From Myxococcota bacterium (GTDB lineage Bacteria > Myxococcota > Kuafuiibacteriia > Kuafuiibacteriales > Kuafuiibacteriaceae), in contig DAIQNR010000003.1 in NCBI GenBank assembly GCA_036788295.1, positions 74,211-138,210 of the forward strand: a stretch of 64,000 nt of DNA, in the 5' to 3' direction. The notes under the pieces were generated by a model. That model had not been told where the DNA came from and did not search any database. It saw nothing but the letters and a program-made list of their open reading frames with translations. Positions 10,243 through 16,043 of this stretch are shown piece after piece. Positions within the stretch are counted from its first letter, which is position 1. Each line of letters opens with the position of its first letter. The position numbers were made by a program, and so were the translations under genes.

Positions 10243-10710
10243 TCAGCAGGGGAGGCGCTCGATCTCGGCCATCAGCGCCGACATCCGGCCGAGCTGAGCG
10301 CAGACCTCGGCGATGTCGAGCTCCGGTTCGGACCGCAAGGCGAGCGCGGCGAAGAAGTCCCGCGCTGACACCATCCCGACCGGTCGTCCCCCGCCGTCGG
10401 TCACCGGCAGGTGGCGAAACCCATGCTCGAGAATGAGCGCGTAGCACTCGAGGACCGGCGTCTGTTCGCCCACCGTCATCGGGGCCCGGGTGCAGACCTC
10501 GGCCACCGTCGTCGAGCTCGGCGAGCGACCCGCCGACACGACCCGATCGAGCACGTCCCGCTCGGTGAACATGCCGGCCACCTTGCCCTCCTCGAGCACC
10601 ACCACGGCTCCTACGTGATGCTCCGTCATGCGCTGCGCGGCCCGCTCGACCGTCTCCTCGAGCGGGACCGTGATGACATGGGTGCGCATGAGCTTTCGGA
10701 CTTCCTGCAT
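10243..10710 (-). CDS. CBS-domain protein
   Basis: MQEVRKLMRTHVITVPLEETVERAAQRMTEHHVGAVVVLEEGKVAGMFTERDVLDRV… is a tandem CBS pair. A strong SD (GAAGGAGGGATC) precedes the ATG at 10710. The longer track ORF start at 10863 lacks an SD. Confidence 0.75.
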   Translation of the reverse strand: MQEVRKLMRTHVITVPLEETVERAAQRMTEHHVGAVVVLEEGKVAGMFTERDVLDRVVSAGRSPSSTTVAEVCTRAPMTVGEQTPVLECYALILEHGFRHLPVTDGGGRPVGMVSARDFFAALALRSEPELDIAEVCAQLGRMSALMAEIERLPC

Positions 10711-10907
10711 GATCCCTCCTTCGGCGGTGAGGCCGGGGCACCGCGGTGGATGCCAACGGGGCAAACTAGCCACGCGCAGCAACGGTCGCAACGCGACTTC
10801 TTGGCGCGGCGACCGGCCGGCCCCGAACCGAGGGAGGGAAGGCTTCCCGCGCGGTCCCCCCAATGGCGGATTGAGACCTACATTTTGACCGTGCGAGCCT
10901 CCCCGGC

Positions 10908-11357
10908 ATGTCCGTCCCCTCTTTGCTCGAACTGGCCGACCCGGCCGTGCTCGAACGACTGCACGCGGAGGTCCAGCACGCCGACGCTGCTCCCCTGCTC
11001 GCCCAGGCCGAGCTGGCCATCGAGGAGGAGCGCTTCGAGGACGCGCACCTCTTCTTGGCCGGCGCGCTGACCGCCGATCCGGAGCGGGCCCGCGCTTTTT
11101 GCGCCCTGGGGCGGCTCGCCGAAGAGGTGGGCGAGCTCGAGGCCGCCGAGCAGGCGTACCGCCGCGCGACGGAGTTCGAGGACGAGGGTGCAGCGCTCGA
11201 CCTGGCCGCTCTGCTCACCGGTTCGGGTCGCTTCGAGGAGGCGGTGGCCATCGCGACCGCGCTCGAGCTCGAAGCAGGCTCGGCCGAAGTTCGGGAAGGG
11301 GCCCGGCTGCTCGCCGGTCGGGCCTCGGCCCGGGGAGCTCGCCATGTCCAGGGTTGA
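10908..11357 (+). CDS. Small TPR-like/helical repeat protein
   Basis: Helical Ala/Glu/Leu-rich repeats (…FEDAHLFLAGALTADPERARAFCALGRLAEEVGELEAAEQAYRRATEF…). Its stop overlaps the start (ATG 11344) of the downstream RNB gene by 14 nt. Confidence 0.4.
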   Translation: MSVPSLLELADPAVLERLHAEVQHADAAPLLAQAELAIEEERFEDAHLFLAGALTADPERARAFCALGRLAEEVGELEAAEQAYRRATEFEDEGAALDLAALLTGSGRFEEAVAIATALELEAGSAEVREGARLLAGRASARGARHVQG

Positions 11358-14300
11358 CCGACGGTCGCCTCGCCCAGTTCCACCGGGGAAAACCGCGGGT
11401 TCGGCGAAGACCCGCGCCACGGCGGATGGGGCGCCGATCCACGACGCCCCCACCTCCCAGCCGTCGCCCGATCGGTCGTGGGAGAACGGGCGCCCGGAGC
11501 GCTTCGGGACCTCCGAGCCCTCTCGATCGGTGGGCGGGGCCAAAATCGTGGCCGAGGCCCAGCGCCGGGCCGGCATCGGCAAGGACGCCATCGCGGTGCG
11601 GATGAAGGACGAGTTGCCGATCGCCGAGGGCGAATCGGTGACGGGCATCCTGCGCCGCAAGCTGAATGGCGATCGGCTGGACCTTTCGATCGAGCTCGCC
11701 GATGGAAAGAGCCTTCGGCTCGACGCGAAGCAGGCGCTCGGGGTCCCCAATGGCGGCCGGCTCACCCTGCGCCGGGACGGGAAGGTGAGGCTCGACCCGG
11801 AAAACAGCGACCACGTCCGAAGCTTCGTGGGCCGGGTGGAGCTGGTCTCGGGGAAGCCGCACGCGGTGAGCACCGATCCGCTCGCCCCGTTTCCTCGCCT
11901 GCCGCTGTCCGAATTGGCCGGGGCCCGCCCCGGGGATCAGGTGCTCGTCCACGTCGAGGCCGGGCTGTCCGACCGGCGGTCCGGGCTCGTCGAGCAGGTG
12001 ATCCCAAAAGACGCGGCGTGGCCGGCGACGTTCACGAAGCTCGCGGTCGAGATGGGTGTGGAGGCGACGTTCGGTCCGAAGGTTCGGGCCGATGTCGAGA
12101 GGCTCGTCGCCTCGTTCGACCCGGCATCGATCCCGGGCTACAAGGATCTATCGGAGAAGCCGTTCTTCAGCATCGACAACCCATACTCGAAGGACTTCGA
12201 CCAAGCGATGCACATCGAGCCGACCCCGGGCCAGCCCGGTAAGCTCGATGTTCTCTACGCGGTGGCCGACCTCGACTTCTTCATGAAGCTCGCCGGGGAA
12301 GGCTCGGCGCTCGCCGAGCGCGCCCACCGGATCCAGACCACGACCTATCTTCCGGAGATGGACTTTCCGATCCTGCCTCGGGAGCTGAGCGAAGGGATCT
12401 GCTCGCTCAACGAAGGGGAGCGGCGCCCGGCCTTCGTCGTGAAGTTCACGGTCTCGCCCGACGGAAAGGTGGAGGCGCCCGAGTTCCTCGACGCGGTCAT
12501 CGTGAACCGAAAGAACGGGAACTATGGCGAGGCGCAGGCCCATCTCGACGGGCAGCGGGTGAAGGACCCCGCCTACGCGGGGGGAATCGACCGCCTGGGT
12601 GAGGTGGGGCGCCGGCTGCTTGGCGACGCCGAGCGCCGGGGCATGTTCACCGCGTCCGAAGGGGAGGCGTGGGCCAAGCTCGACCCTCGCACCGGCGGGA
12701 TCAGCCTCGAGCACCGAGGCGAGAAGTGGGTGGAGGCGGCCAACGCGCAGGTCTCGATTGCGGCCAACCGCCTGGTTGGCCGGTTCCTGCTCGACAACGC
12801 GGCGCCCGCGTTCCACCGCCGCCACGAGGAGCCGGACGCGGCCAAGCAGGACGGCGCCCGGCGCGTCCTGTCGAAGCTCGGGATCACCTGGGCCCCGGGC
12901 GAAGAGCCGTCGGCGGTGCTTGCCCGGATCGATTCGTCCACCACCAAAGGCCGGGCCGCCAAGCGAGCGGTGCAGCGCACCTTGCCCCGCGCCCACGTCT
13001 CGGCCGAGCCCGGCGCCCACCACGGGCTGAGGGTCGAGGAGTACGTGCAGAGCACGGCGCCGATGCGCCGGGCCCGAGACGCGCGCAACCACGCTTTCGT
13101 TCGGGCGGTGCGGGACGGCAAGACCCCCGATCGGAGCCGGCTGCCCGACGAGATCGCGCGGGCCCAGGAGGCCGAGGACCGCAGCCGGCGGCTCGACTGG
13201 GAGGTGAGGGCCCGGATCGCGACCGCCGCGCTCGCGGAGCACGTCGGCAAGCCGCTCGAGGCCGAGGTGCTCGGGGTGTCGCCGTGGGGGGTGAACCTGC
13301 GGTTTCCGTCGGTTGGCGTCGAGCTCGGGGTGCCGTTTCGGACGCTCGGCCTCGGGCGATTCGAACTCGGCGAGGACGGGACGGTCGCAAAGAGCAACGG
13401 CGTCGAGTTCCGGCTCGGGCAGAAGGTGCAGGCGAAGTTGCTCGAGGCCGATCCCCACGCGGCCCGGGCCCGGTTCGAGTTCCCGGGCGCGGCGGCGGTT
13501 CGCTCCCCGGGGAAGACCGGGAAGGCGCGGAGCGCCTCGGGGCCGGTCCGCGCGCTGTCCGAGGTTCGGGGCGACGGCTTCGAGTCCCCGCTCGTCGGGC
13601 AGCGGGTCCGCACCCGCGGGGTGGTGACGGCGGCCCACAAGGCCGGCTTCTTCTTGGTCCCCGAGGGCGCCGCGCCGGGCGCCGTGACTGGAGGGATCCA
13701 GGTCCGGACCAAGGCCCACGTCCGGCCCGGCGACGTGGTCGAGGTCGATGGGCAGGTCCACGAGCGAAAGAAGGCGGACGCCCCCTACGATCGCTCGGTC
13801 GTGGAGCTGGTCGAGGCCAAGGCCCAGGTCGTCGGGAAGACGGAGCCGCCGCCCGCGCTCGCGCTGACCGAGACGGTGCCGGCGGACAGAAAAGAGGCCG
13901 TCGAGTTCTGGCGGCAGCGGCTCGGGCAGCGGGTGAAGGTGGGACCGGCCACCGCGCTCGCGCCGAGCAACCCGTTTGGCGATCTCGTCGTGCTGCCCCA
14001 GGGCTGGGAGCCGGCGGGGGCGACTCGGACCGCCCGCGGCGGCGTGCTGATGCCGGACGGTGAGTTCAACCATCAGCACGTCGGGCTGAAGCTGCCCCGC
14101 GGGGCGGCCGCGTCGGTGGCGGTGGGCGACCAGGTGAACGGCACAGAAGGGGTCGTCATCTATCGCTCGGGCGGGTTTCAGGTCGAGCTCTCCGAGGCCC
14201 CCTCGGTGACGAAGGCCCCCACGTCCCCGGCGCCGGTCAGCCCTCTTGCCCCCGAGCCGGGAAAGATGGTGGTCGCGAACGTCAACGCCTTGAACCTCCA

Positions 14301-15117
14301 CCCGGGGGAGACGAAGCGGGCGGCGGCGCTCGCCGACCGGATCGTGAATGGTCTTTTGAGCCCGGACGTCATCGCGCTGCAGGAGATCCAGGACAACGAC
14401 GGGCCGGCGGCCACCGGCACCACCGCCGCCGACAAGACCTATGGGATGCTCATCGACAAGATTCAGCAGGCGGGCGGGCCGCGCTACGCCTGGTTCGACA
14501 TCCCCCCGCAAAACGGACAGGACGGCGGCCAGCCTGGTGGCAACATCCGCAACGGCTTTCTGTACCGGGAGGACCGGGTGAAGCTCGACGAGGAGTCGGT
14601 GGCCCGGATCGGCGAAGGCAACCCCGCCTTCGACGGGACGAGAAAGTCTTTGGCCGCCGTCTTCGAGATGGAGGGTCGCCGGCTGCTGGTGGTGAACAAC
14701 CACCTGTCGTCCCGGCGGGGCTCCTCGCCCTGGACCGCCGACGTCGAGGTCCCGGTGGTGGGCAAGGCCGAGGCCCGCCAGGCCCAGGCCGAGGCGGTGC
14801 GGGCCTTCGTCGATGCCGCCCGAACCAAGGAGTCAGGGCTCGACGCGGTCATGATCGGGGACATGAACGACGGCCACCGCTCCCCTGCGGTCGAACGTTT
14901 GACCCGGGGCGGGTTCGACGACATCACCCTGAAGGTCCCTCCGGCCGATCGCTTCGACTACAACTACCGAGGCACGCTTCAGACCCTGCAGCCGGTGGTC
15001 GGTAGCCCTGGCCTCGCCCAGCGCACCGAGGCCGCTTTCCTTCACAACAGCGTCTACGAAGGCGTGAAGGACTCGGACCACGATCCGGTCGTGGTCCGCA
15101 TCGACATGCGGTCCTGA
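11344..15117 (+). CDS. Multidomain nuclease: RNase II/R-family RNB exoribonuclease domain + central OB/S1-like region + C-terminal endonuclease/exonuclease/phosphatase (EEP) domain
   Basis: RNB catalytic motif PFFSIDNPYSKDFDQAMHIEP (the RNase II/R 'IDxxxxxDxDDA' region) sits at ~aa 280. The C-terminal ~300 aa carry EEP features (MVVANVNALNL…DVIALQEIQ…LVVNNHLSSRRG…DAVMIGDMND…SDHDPVVVRIDM). The single ORF is 1257 aa from ATG 11344; the track's longer start at 11188 runs through Arg-rich sequence. Confidence 0.8.
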   Translation: MSRVDRRSPRPVPPGKTAGSAKTRATADGAPIHDAPTSQPSPDRSWENGRPERFGTSEPSRSVGGAKIVAEAQRRAGIGKDAIAVRMKDELPIAEGESVTGILRRKLNGDRLDLSIELADGKSLRLDAKQALGVPNGGRLTLRRDGKVRLDPENSDHVRSFVGRVELVSGKPHAVSTDPLAPFPRLPLSELAGARPGDQVLVHVEAGLSDRRSGLVEQVIPKDAAWPATFTKLAVEMGVEATFGPKVRADVERLVASFDPASIPGYKDLSEKPFFSIDNPYSKDFDQAMHIEPTPGQPGKLDVLYAVADLDFFMKLAGEGSALAERAHRIQTTTYLPEMDFPILPRELSEGICSLNEGERRPAFVVKFTVSPDGKVEAPEFLDAVIVNRKNGNYGEAQAHLDGQRVKDPAYAGGIDRLGEVGRRLLGDAERRGMFTASEGEAWAKLDPRTGGISLEHRGEKWVEAANAQVSIAANRLVGRFLLDNAAPAFHRRHEEPDAAKQDGARRVLSKLGITWAPGEEPSAVLARIDSSTTKGRAAKRAVQRTLPRAHVSAEPGAHHGLRVEEYVQSTAPMRRARDARNHAFVRAVRDGKTPDRSRLPDEIARAQEAEDRSRRLDWEVRARIATAALAEHVGKPLEAEVLGVSPWGVNLRFPSVGVELGVPFRTLGLGRFELGEDGTVAKSNGVEFRLGQKVQAKLLEADPHAARARFEFPGAAAVRSPGKTGKARSASGPVRALSEVRGDGFESPLVGQRVRTRGVVTAAHKAGFFLVPEGAAPGAVTGGIQVRTKAHVRPGDVVEVDGQVHERKKADAPYDRSVVELVEAKAQVVGKTEPPPALALTETVPADRKEAVEFWRQRLGQRVKVGPATALAPSNPFGDLVVLPQGWEPAGATRTARGGVLMPDGEFNHQHVGLKLPRGAAASVAVGDQVNGTEGVVIYRSGGFQVELSEAPSVTKAPTSPAPVSPLAPEPGKMVVANVNALNLHPGETKRAAALADRIVNGLLSPDVIALQEIQDNDGPAATGTTAADKTYGMLIDKIQQAGGPRYAWFDIPPQNGQDGGQPGGNIRNGFLYREDRVKLDEESVARIGEGNPAFDGTRKSLAAVFEMEGRRLLVVNNHLSSRRGSSPWTADVEVPVVGKAEARQAQAEAVRAFVDAARTKESGLDAVMIGDMNDGHRSPAVERLTRGGFDDITLKVPPADRFDYNYRGTLQTLQPVVGSPGLAQRTEAAFLHNSVYEGVKDSDHDPVVVRIDMRS

Positions 15118-15125
15118 CCTTCATC

Positions 15126-15180
15126 GGCCCGACCCTCCATGGGGCCGGACCCTCCATGGGCCCGGACCCTTCACCGGCCC
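15126..15180. repeat. Approximately 17-bp degenerate tandem repeat (ccggaccctccatggg) x3 in a convergent gene junction
   Basis: ggcccgaccctccatgggg / ccggaccctccatgggc / ccggacccttcaccggc, read directly. It lies between the RNB-EEP stop (15117) and the last codons of the minus-strand J-domain-like gene. Confidence 0.6.
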
Positions 15181-16043
15181 GGGGATGAGCCGCCCTGGCC
15201 CGGCTCGTCCTTGGCGCTCGTCGCTCGGGCCGCCTGAAGCGCCCTCACCTCGGCCTCGATCTGCGGCTCGGTCAAGATGCCTTGCTCGACGAAGTACCTG
15301 CCGATCGGTTGCTGCAGGACCCGTTGCCGGCCAACGATGGCCAGCCGCTGAAACGGGGTCATCCAGCCCCGCCTCACCGCGTAGTCGCAAAACAGCTCGC
15401 CCGGCTCCTTCTCGCGCAGCGCGTCCAGGACCTGGTCGTCGGCCAGAATGCCCCAGGACTTCGCGATCTGGCCCACCGCCGGGCGCTGCGCCCGCTGCCA
15501 AGCGACCGCGGCGATCAGCTGGCGGAGCGTGATCAGGCCACGCCGGTGCAGGTGGCGGCCAAGCACCACCGTCCGCTCCACCGCCTCGGCCGGCGGCGGC
15601 GAGGGGCGCCGCTCGGCCAGGGCCTGGGTCTGGGCCTTCAGTTTGCCGAGCGCCTCCTTCAGCCGCTGGGTGGCTGCCTCGACGTCCCCCCCCGCGTTCT
15701 TGGAGGGCCGGGGCGCGTCGATGGTCACCGAAGAGAGCGGCGCGGGGCGGGGGTTCCACCGCCGGGGGGTCCGGTCCAGCTCATCGAGGACCGGCATCAC
15801 CCACGCCGCCTTCTCGGGCCCGAGCACGTCGGCGAGCAGGTCGAACGCGAGCGCGACCCCGCGCAGCGCCTCGGAGAGCTCCTCCTTCGACTTGCCCTCC
15901 GCATCGGGGTGGGGCGCTCGGTACTGCGCGGCTCGGGCCCGAAACGCTCTGGCCAGTGGGTCGCGAAACAGCACGAAGCCTCCCCCTCGAAGGTCCTCGC
16001 CGAAGATGATTTGGTACGCCTGGTGCAGTCGATGGGTCGTCAT
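15171..16043 (-). CDS. J-domain-like (HPD motif) protein with two GspE-N/MshEN-like helical repeats
   Basis: The N-terminus HQAYQIIFGEDLRGG…ARAAQYRAPHPDAEGKSKEELSEALRGVALAFDLLAD resembles a degenerate DnaJ J-domain with an HPD tripeptide. The C-terminal half has two 'GLITLRQLIAAVAWQR…/…YFVEQGILTEPQIEAEVRALQ' repeats like the T2SS-E N-terminal (MshEN) fold. SD GGGAGG precedes the ATG at 16043. The upstream 460 codons of track ORF 15171-17432 are antisense to the next gene and rejected. Confidence 0.5.
   Translation of the reverse strand: MTTHRLHQAYQIIFGEDLRGGGFVLFRDPLARAFRARAAQYRAPHPDAEGKSKEELSEALRGVALAFDLLADVLGPEKAAWVMPVLDELDRTPRRWNPRPAPLSSVTIDAPRPSKNAGGDVEAATQRLKEALGKLKAQTQALAERRPSPPPAEAVERTVVLGRHLHRRGLITLRQLIAAVAWQRAQRPAVGQIAKSWGILADDQVLDALREKEPGELFCDYAVRRGWMTPFQRLAIVGRQRVLQQPIGRYFVEQGILTEPQIEAEVRALQAARATSAKDEPGQGGSSPGR

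Follow-up and report, generated by a model that had tools for sequence, protein, structure and literature searches.

The contig DAIQNR010000003.1 of the Myxococcota bacterium assembly GCA_036788295.1 carries two overlapping genes on the forward strand of the 64,000-nucleotide stretch analyzed here (contig positions 74,211 to 138,210; hereafter the window, whose own numbering is used below unless another locus is named). The downstream gene (11344-15117) encodes a nuclease of 1257 residues with two heads, namely a complete RNase II/R-type unit built around an RNB domain and, behind a flexible linker, a complete OB-OB-EEP unit of the ExeM/NucH/SpnA kind, where EEP stands for the endonuclease/exonuclease/phosphatase fold. 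The upstream gene (10908-11357) encodes an acidic protein of 149 residues with tetratricopeptide repeats (TPR). The nuclease is two complete nuclease units tethered to each other rather than one nuclease with an extra domain, and this two-unit architecture is close to certain. The fusion is rare and clade-restricted. We propose that it is a cytoplasmic enzyme that combines endonuclease and 3'-exonuclease in a single chain and has a dedicated TPR partner, an overall picture for which belief and doubt are, in our view, about evenly matched.

Two Nuclease Units in One Polypeptide

The forward-strand frame is open from stop to stop over 11071-15117, and from ATG 11344 to the stop at 15117 it encodes 1257 residues. 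From this ATG, the GC content at the three codon positions is 0.73/0.50/0.90, matching the real genes of the window. An alternative start, GTG 11188, was rejected, as homologs align from their own N-termini and the position of a Shine-Dalgarno-like element favors ATG 11344. The window has a GC content of ~70% throughout and holds long open reading frames (ORFs) in many frames; two that lie antisense to the nuclease gene, 12148-14703 (minus strand, 851 residues) and 12573-13784 (minus strand, 379-404 residues), have an inverted pattern with GC1 below GC2 (e.g., 0.53/0.77/0.93) and are shadow ORFs, not genes. An identical nuclease protein is recorded in the NCBI metagenome-assembled genome (MAG) GCA_964504175.1 (contig CAZDDJ010000003.1) and in the Logan assembly of run SRR3311151. 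Database names for the family say only "RNB domain-containing ribonuclease."

An earlier note on this DNA, made from the letters alone, had described one uninterrupted 1257-residue ORF that combines an RNB domain, a central OB-like β-rich region and a complete C-terminal EEP domain. The ORF itself, its codon-position GC and its homologs bear out the first point, and the domain assignments hold as well, two of them in refined form: the RNB domain is part of a whole RNase II/R enzyme with the order CSD1-CSD2-RNB-S1, and the β-rich region resolves into the S1 domain of that enzyme plus the two OB folds of the ExeM/NucH/SpnA module. The underlying motifs are found at residues 273-293 (PFFSIDNPYSKDFDQAMHIEP), ~1011-1016 (ALQEIQ), 1118-1123 (NNHLSS), 1172-1176 (GDMND), and 1244-1249 (SDHDPV). 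The Pfam profile RNB (PF00773) matches residues 267-588 with 181 bits against a cut-off of 29.3 (E = 4e-53), and the TIGR02063 RNase_R profile aligns to residues 162-712. The EEP domain is supported by three lines of evidence: Exo_endo_phos (PF03372) matches residues 979-1203 with 32 bits, above its gathering score of 24.5; the NCBIfam profile ExeM_NucH_DNase (NF033681) aligns over profile positions 1-501 of 546 to residues 757-1231 (E = 2e-34), at 119.6 bits and thus below its cut-off of 300; and in a phmmer search against solved structures the best match is SpnA (Streptococcus pyogenes nuclease A, 9sf8/9sf9) over residues 738-1253 (E = 5e-56), with E. coli RNase R and RNase II next.

An AlphaFold2 model covering residues 58-1257, built from a 44-sequence alignment, has a mean predicted local distance difference test (pLDDT) score of 89.7, while its predicted template-modeling score (pTM) is only 0.59. 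In Foldseek searches, the N-terminal half of the model superposes on E. coli RNase R 5xgu_B (619 residues; ~646 columns, TM 0.76 on the target, E = 1e-39) and on RNase II 2ix1, and the EEP half matches TDP2 and a Bacteroides EEP protein (E ~ 1e-11).

From the N-terminus, the chain begins with a basic, low-complexity tail (residues 1-95, 11344-11628; isoelectric point (pI) 10.4), which is poorly conserved in the family alignment and poorly modeled, with low pLDDT in the first ~40 modeled residues. Two cold-shock-like β-barrels, CSD1 and CSD2 (residues ~98-220, 11635-12003), are placed by the strand pattern of the model, the Foldseek match to RNase R and the TIGR02063 alignment. They are followed by the RNB catalytic domain (residues 267-588, 12142-13107), which also aligns to RNase II 2id0. 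The S1-type β-barrel that ends the RNase II/R unit (residues ~637-712, 13252-13479) is delimited by model strands, a weak Pfam RNase_II_C_S1 match to residues 686-712 and the alignment to RNase R and RNase II. Between the two units lies a flexible linker (residues 716-730, 13489-13533) with pLDDT below 50 (model residues 659-673), variable and gapped in the family alignment. The second unit starts with two OB-fold/β domains (residues ~738-960, 13555-14223), equivalent to OB3 and OB4 of SpnA (PMC13601614) and to the OB part on which ExeM activity depends (PMC6085458), as judged by the phmmer match and by NF033681, which aligns from profile position 1. It ends with the DNase I-like EEP catalytic domain (residues ~975-1254, 14266-15105), assigned by Pfam, the SpnA alignment and structural matches to TDP2 and other EEP enzymes.

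The nuclease scores under every equivalog cut-off: 204.6 versus 597.85 for TIGR02063, 98.7 versus 641.9 for TIGR02062, and 118.9 versus 542 for NF003455. Because of these scores, and because it misses one defining feature of each family, the protein lies outside RNase R, RNase II, and ExeM/NucH proper and is an architectural variant assembled from known kinds. Its RNB part is a distinct lineage and not an ortholog of RNase R or RNase II.

A Rare but Conserved Fusion

The earlier note had called a covalent RNB-EEP fusion unusual, and cluster searches at the billion scale agree with it, although the same fusion does occur in other Myxococcota-labeled MAGs. A word-indexed search of 5.8 billion clusters returned 16 full-length homologs with 47-59% identity, 1245-1321 residues and the same architecture, after which there is a steep drop to RNase R at ~27% identity. 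Two further family members are P0094 and P0095. An exhaustive HMMER search with residues 260-1257, run against 1.84 billion cluster representatives at 50% identity, yielded three clusters with the full-length fusion plus a single fragment; all others listed among the best 150 matches match the C-terminal module only. Among GTDB species representatives, the fusion occurs at six loci, all in MAGs labeled Myxococcota or Myxococcales, with one Bdellovibrionales. No cultured organism with the fusion was found in these searches. The family alignment has a mean column identity of 62% along its whole length. With the 16 full-length homologs, P0094/P0095 and this level of identity, the nuclease represents a conserved family rather than an accidental fusion.

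No other RNB-EEP fusion was present among six large ExeM/NucH relatives that were scanned; those carry RTX, cadherin, Calx-beta, choice-of-anchor or tandem EEP domains. A search for the split, unfused state gave no sign of fission. Upstream of P0098, the closest stand-alone OB-OB-EEP relative, lies a gamma-glutamyltranspeptidase-like gene, and RNB and TPR genes are both missing there. P0205 (L016:644-2724, Logan DRR203756) is a leaderless stand-alone OB-OB-EEP protein, whose gene is followed by genes for a 128-residue acidic non-TPR protein (4-nucleotide overlap), a DnaJ-TPR protein and Hsp70; P0205 and the 128-residue protein may be another pair of a nuclease and a small partner. A literature search of limited breadth turned up no paper on an RNB-EEP fusion.

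An Altered but Maintained RNB Site

RNB motif I of the nuclease, D278-NPYSK-D284-F-D286-Q287 (12175-12204), can be mapped residue by residue to RNase II: D201, D207, and D209 correspond to D278, D284, and D286, whereas D210 corresponds to Q287; outside the motif, Y253, Y313, and R500 correspond to Y335, Y394, and R575. All seven residues of the nuclease are invariant across the family alignment. The four-Asp motif DxxxxxDxDD is therefore absent and the sequence reads DxxxxxDxDQ. The fourth position is Gln in 19/19 family members, while it is Asp in 75/75 RNase R relatives retrieved. The RNB site is thus maintained but altered, and its activity is uncertain.

This substitution is a reason to consider that the RNB head might be a pseudonuclease, i.e., an RNA 3'-end binding or threading module like fungal Ssd1 that targets or anchors the EEP head as the only active nuclease. 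In crystal structures of RNase II, RNase R, and Rrp44, the Mg2+ ion is bound by the residues equivalent to D201 and D210 of RNase II (D272 and D281 in RNase R; PMC5714204), all family members known to be active are described as having the complete motif (PMC8097288), and Ssd1 is among the structural matches of the model. Still, the other three Asp residues and the equivalents of Y253, Y313, and R500 are invariant across members that are 45-59% identical to the window protein, which is the pattern of a maintained site. Glutamine can also ligate Mg2+ via its carbonyl oxygen, and this too counts against a dead RNB head. Moreover, the RNase II of Anabaena is active with just two acidic residues in motif I (PMC7144899). 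On balance, we regard loss of RNB catalysis as unlikely. Either way, an RNB domain with DxxxxxDxDQ is a natural experiment on whether the fourth Asp is indispensable.

A Probably Displaced Aspartate in the EEP Site

The catalytic residues of SpnA are E592, R696, H716, D767, N769, and D842 (PMC13601614). They correspond to E1014, R1100, H1120, D1173, N1175, and D1245 of the nuclease, and the His adjacent to D842 corresponds to H1246; all of these are invariant across the family alignment. The Asp of the canonical Asp-His dyad, SpnA D810, maps to Q1216 instead. As for the catalytic residues of the two domains singled out in the earlier note, Asp and His are thus not missing in both, but neither site is canonical: RNB motif I ends in Gln, and the EEP dyad lacks Asp at its canonical position but has one on an adjacent strand.

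The latter assignment is based on an alignment of 115 sequences comprising 19 fusion proteins and 96 relatives. At the SpnA D810 position, Asp is found in 93/96 relatives (free-standing proteins, usually with Asp-His); in the 19 fusion proteins, Gln, Thr, or Cys takes its place. D1205 of the nuclease is invariant in the fusion family, and other relatives have Thr or Ser there. In all 115 sequences, Asp occupies exactly one of the two positions (22 of the D1205 type versus 93 canonical), and the sole three non-fusion sequences with Asp at the D1205 position are the same three that lack the canonical one. D1205 and Q1216 delimit a hairpin segment (14956-14991), recognized in both the SpnA and the 115-sequence alignment; in the model, residues 1206-1208 and 1211-1213 form the hairpin, and D1205 is placed on the face of positions 1214 and 1216. 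From the sequence pattern and this geometry, we infer that the dyad Asp has moved to the neighboring strand as D1205. The 22 sequences with the relocated Asp form a single clade in a neighbor-joining tree with the motif masked. Since the leaderless stand-alone proteins P0098 and P0205 share the relocation, it appears to predate the fusion and to have been kept over deep divergence. An EEP clade with an apparently moved dyad Asp is a natural experiment on the fixity of EEP catalytic geometry.

The TPR Protein Is Strictly Linked to the Nuclease

The 149-residue protein encoded upstream (10908-11357) has a pI of 4.5 and a net charge of -16. It matches Pfam TPR_19 with 29 bits against a cut-off of 25, and its model (pLDDT 95) consists of an N-terminal helix, three TPR motifs and a long capping helix. 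No DNA-binding domain was found in it with Pfam. A fold search places designed consensus 3-TPR proteins closest, and the best natural matches include SycD, PcrH, AcrH, and IpgC (class II chaperones of type III secretion systems, T3SS) as well as the TPR domains of SGT and CHIP. The fold similarity is generic and fits a protein of the peptide-binding type.

The stop codon of the TPR gene (TGA 11355-11357) lies within the nuclease gene, giving an overlap of 14 nucleotides (11344-11357), and a Shine-Dalgarno-like GGGGAG, read from the sequence (11332-11337), is located within the 3' end of the TPR gene, 6 nucleotides ahead of the nuclease ATG. The earlier note had reported a TPR-like ORF of 149 residues that overlaps the nuclease start by 14 nucleotides and had suggested that it might encode a partner or inhibitor; the stop codon, the TPR_19 match and the TPR model agree with the former, so that the observation of the gene pair is confirmed in every detail, and a partner is strongly supported by co-occurrence, with inhibition as one candidate role. 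In tblastn searches, a TPR ortholog with 35-49% identity lies directly upstream on the same strand in 6/6 genome loci. Gene calls place it directly upstream of the nuclease in four further contexts, and a search that started from the TPR family found the fusion nuclease immediately downstream in 3/3 long contigs. Adjacency with overlapping stop and start holds for 14/14 loci, and the 13 loci with DNA are all distinct. A profile made from ten TPR orthologs retrieves 21 tight clusters at 150-205 bits and then generic TPR proteins at no more than 52 bits, while a search with the single TPR sequence found only itself.

Across loci, the overlap measures 1, 4, 14, or 17 nucleotides, and the junction takes the form GTGA, TGATG/TAATG, or ATG with a stop 14 or 17 nucleotides on. 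Purine-rich Shine-Dalgarno-like elements (GGAGG, AAGGAGG, GAAAGG) occur at the same place in the 12 other loci with DNA. Varied but conserved overlaps together with these elements point to translational coupling of two separate proteins. We also considered that the two genes might be one gene split by a frameshift or sequencing error and rejected this, as the two-gene layout with varied overlaps is conserved. A promoter and terminator scan of 10500-15400 found no sigma-70-like site, and its single terminator-like match is intragenic, with a count below chance expectation that makes the scan uninformative.

All TPR family members are acidic (pI 4.4-5.2, net charge -6 to -17), whereas the N-terminal 95 residues of the accompanying nuclease have a basic pI of 8.9-11.6 everywhere except in P0013 (pI 6.1). 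The first five codons of the nuclease gene (11344-11358 in the window, and likewise at the L004 and L011 junctions) follow a seemingly conserved pattern, M-R/S-x-hydrophobic-D/G. No peptide signal is claimed for a conserved "MRLDN", since the same codons also encode the end of the TPR protein and nucleotide constraints of the overlap may account for this seeming motif.

Cellular Location and Genomic Neighborhoods

A hydrophobic N-terminal segment is lacking in every family member: over residues 1-70, the maximum of the 15-residue Kyte-Doolittle window is -0.06 in the window protein and 1.5 in the family. Neither a Sec nor a Tat signal was seen in the nuclease, and Pfam and NCBIfam detect no LTD, sortase signal or GlyGly-CTERM anchor in it. 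Family members have 1-5 cysteines per ~1250 residues. Taken from these sequence features, the best reading is that the nuclease is cytoplasmic.

Other members of the ExeM/NucH/SpnA family are secreted or anchored at the surface (PMC6085458, PMC13601614). One might therefore think of an exported toxin or predation effector that leaves the cell by a leaderless route and attacks the nucleic acids of prey or competitors; the TPR protein would then serve either as a chaperone of the T3SS class II type, bound to the disordered N-terminus, or as immunity protein of the producing cell. The position of a small acidic TPR gene directly upstream, the disordered and basic N-terminus of the nuclease, and the presence of SycD, PcrH, AcrH, and IpgC among the best natural structural matches of the TPR protein would suit this idea, as would weak profile matches to LcrH_SycD and SctY. 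The host phylum also includes predators. However, the score against LcrH_SycD (TIGR02552) is 16 bits with a cut-off of 104.8, and the TPR likeness is generic, with designed consensus proteins on top. Pfam finds no known trafficking domain in the N-terminus of the nuclease. Genes for secretion systems, PAAR/VgrG/Rhs, CDI, or LXG proteins are absent from the eleven gene-called neighborhoods, and a range of ±10 kb is free of T3SS genes both in the window and at the other loci. Immunity genes are usually found downstream of their toxins, not upstream. Finally, the locus is stable, apparently vertically inherited and of native codon usage. An exported effector is thus distinctly improbable.

In the window, the pair is surrounded by plain metabolic genes. 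The next gene, 15174-16043 on the minus strand, encodes a 290-residue protein without a Pfam match; it is convergent with the nuclease gene, with 56 nucleotides between the stops, and has no counterpart in related loci. In gene-called loci across the family, no conserved neighbor other than the TPR gene was found, yet synteny is stable within one subclade, and this combination argues for a stable chromosomal locus that is inherited vertically. In this more distant subclade (L014:4307-6987, L015:3566-6090, L013:4274-6990; L005, L007, L008), the TPR gene is preceded, in the same orientation, by genes for a ~410-residue signal-peptide protein and a ~485-residue Kelch β-propeller lipoprotein, the latter gene ending ~10 nucleotides before the TPR gene. 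Both extra genes are 40-67% identical across these loci and absent from the clade of the window; the genes for the ~410-residue protein, the Kelch protein, the TPR protein and the nuclease may form a four-gene operon or may be merely syntenic.

Three loci have neighbors of other kinds. On a ~6.05 Mb contig (ENA ERZ26696514), a 1260-residue RNase_T (DEDD) protein with a faint PLDc_2 match is encoded ~2 kb upstream of the pair (L009:1561-5343), and the pair is followed directly, in the same orientation, by genes for a 532-residue NYN-domain protein and an AIG2-like protein (L009:12075-14186); these surroundings could be a nucleic-acid-degradation cluster. In a marine metagenome (ERZ908037; L010:1-7367), the region upstream of the pair encodes two caspase-like Peptidase_C14 proteins, a trypsin-like protease and a kinase-nSTAND1-FGE-sulfatase protein, an arrangement that resembles a conflict system and was seen at that locus only. 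At a third locus, a 472-residue reverse transcriptase (RVT_1) is encoded ~2 kb upstream of the TPR gene (L011:4129-5547) and a small RRM-domain RNA-binding protein convergently, 13 nucleotides past the nuclease stop (L011:11787-12107).

Neighbors of this conflict type (the caspase-like peptidases, trypsin and nSTAND proteins, the reverse transcriptase, and the PLD/RNase_T and NYN nucleases), together with a small upstream gene overlapping a large nuclease gene as in type II toxin-antitoxin operons, could suggest an anti-phage, abortive-infection or toxin-antitoxin-like module in which the TPR protein silences a promiscuous nuclease until a trigger arrives, but we hold this to be very improbable given that a PADLOC-DB 2.0 scan of both proteins gave no match at E ≤ 0.01, that the other neighborhoods including that of the window are plainly metabolic, that mobile-element hallmarks are absent, that the narrow, clade-restricted and syntenic spread is unlike that of horizontally mobile defense genes, and that the TPR protein has no DNA-binding domain.

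A Model for a Dual-Headed Nuclease

In the proposed cytoplasmic enzyme, whose two units would fold independently, the N-terminal unit would draw single-stranded 3' ends into its RNB funnel for degradation in the 3'-to-5' direction, and the EEP head would cut nucleic acid internally, as characterized relatives of the C-terminal unit do with DNA and RNA. DNase I-type EEP chemistry leaves 3'-OH ends. The tethered RNB head would then consume these EEP-made ends processively, such that one chain acts like Dis3 with its PIN and RNB domains or like degradosome complexes of endonuclease and exonuclease. The TPR protein, translated first off the same mRNA, would bind an extended segment of the nuclease, most plausibly its basic disordered N-terminal tail, and in the bound state would restrain, stabilize or chaperone, or direct the enzyme. 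The activity of either head, the substrate, the cooperation of the heads and the role of the TPR protein are presented here as predictions from architecture, active-site conservation (purifying selection acts on most catalytic residues) and gene order.

Several observations weigh against parts of this model. The RNB head may be weak or inactive because Q287 takes the place of a direct Mg2+ ligand. Compensation by D1205 in the EEP head is suggested by a sequence pattern and hairpin geometry, and the either/or distribution of the Asp is a single evolutionary event instead of statistically independent evidence, because the 22 sequences form one clade. Substrate hand-over between the heads is conjecture, since their relative orientation is not confidently predicted (pTM 0.59). 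The EEP head as such may not need an inhibitor, because P0098 has no upstream TPR gene and the contig of P0205 no small TPR partner. Without a Sec or Tat signal, leaderless export may still occur.

A more far-reaching version, which we think has a small chance of being right, is a TPR-gated nuclease for self-destruction or attack: a leaderless shredder of RNA and DNA that would be held inert by stoichiometric TPR binding and released on a signal such as developmental lysis, phage infection or prey contact, with the Asp-to-Gln change in the RNB site and the relocated EEP Asp tuning metal or substrate preference. If true, the pair would establish both a class of regulated bifunctional nuclease and a type of nuclease inhibitor that are new.

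Under the model of a cytoplasmic endo- and exonuclease, and provided that both heads are active, the protein would realize the endo-plus-exo principle of Dis3 and the degradosome in a single bacterial chain, built with the EEP domain of an otherwise extracellular family. The acidic TPR protein, inherited strictly together with the nuclease, could prove to be a new regulator or inhibitor of nucleases. The fusion merits interest as it is clean, rare and conserved, has two unusual active-site solutions and comes with a dedicated partner. In practical terms the impact is modest, since only a few uncultured Myxococcota lineages carry the family and it has as yet no link to a major open question; its parts are familiar.

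Comparison With Known Systems

RNase II/R and ExeM/NucH/SpnA are both well-studied families, and to our knowledge no characterized enzyme joins the two halves. With RNase R and RNase II (5xgu, 2ix1), the nuclease shares the order CSD1-CSD2-RNB-S1 and the equivalents of D201, D207, D209, Y253, Y313, and R500. These enzymes pass 3' single-stranded ends through a channel formed by the CSD and S1 domains and degrade them processively (PMC5714204). In contrast to them, the nuclease has an invariant Gln at the fourth Asp position of the motif, shares only ~27% identity with the nearest RNase R, scores far under the equivalog cut-offs, and adds a basic disordered N-terminal tail, a fused second complete nuclease and an obligate TPR partner gene.

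The C-terminal half has the OB-OB-EEP order of ExeM, NucH, Xds, and SpnA, ~35-38% identity to many members, and the Mg2+-binding Glu, the His, the D-x-N motif and the terminal D-H. Both DNA and RNA are cut by ExeM, whose activity depends on its OB region (PMC6085458), and the resolved part of SpnA consists of OB3, OB4, and the nuclease domain (PMC13601614). Unlike these proteins, the nuclease lacks a signal peptide, LTD, sortase signal, and GlyGly-CTERM anchor and stays at 119.6 bits where the family profile demands 300; across its family, the dyad Asp is replaced by Gln, Thr, or Cys with an Asp on the preceding strand, and an RNase II/R unit is fused ahead of the module.

Ssd1 (7am1) and other pseudonucleases of the RNase II family likewise have an RNB fold that departs from DxxxxxDxDD, and Ssd1 is a structural match (PMC8097288). 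Here, however, the departure is confined to a single Asp of the four, conservatively replaced by Gln, with every other catalytic residue invariant. The TPR protein resembles the 3-TPR modules of SycD, PcrH, and IpgC and of SGT and CHIP in its size (~145 residues), acidic pI, three TPR motifs with a capping helix, and the position of its gene directly upstream of a presumed client, but the likeness is generic only: designed consensus TPRs match best, LcrH_SycD stays under its cut-off and T3SS genes are not found nearby.

A parallel in principle is Dis3/Rrp44, in which an endonuclease head and a processive 3'-to-5' exonuclease of the CSD-RNB-S1 type are likewise combined in one chain; the RNB units are structurally related, and in the nuclease described here the activity is predicted. 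Dis3 has an N-terminal PIN domain, whereas Pfam finds no PIN domain in the nuclease, whose second head is a C-terminal EEP domain, and there is no exosome core. The two proteins are independent fusions, not homologous in their whole architecture, and would be alike in function only.

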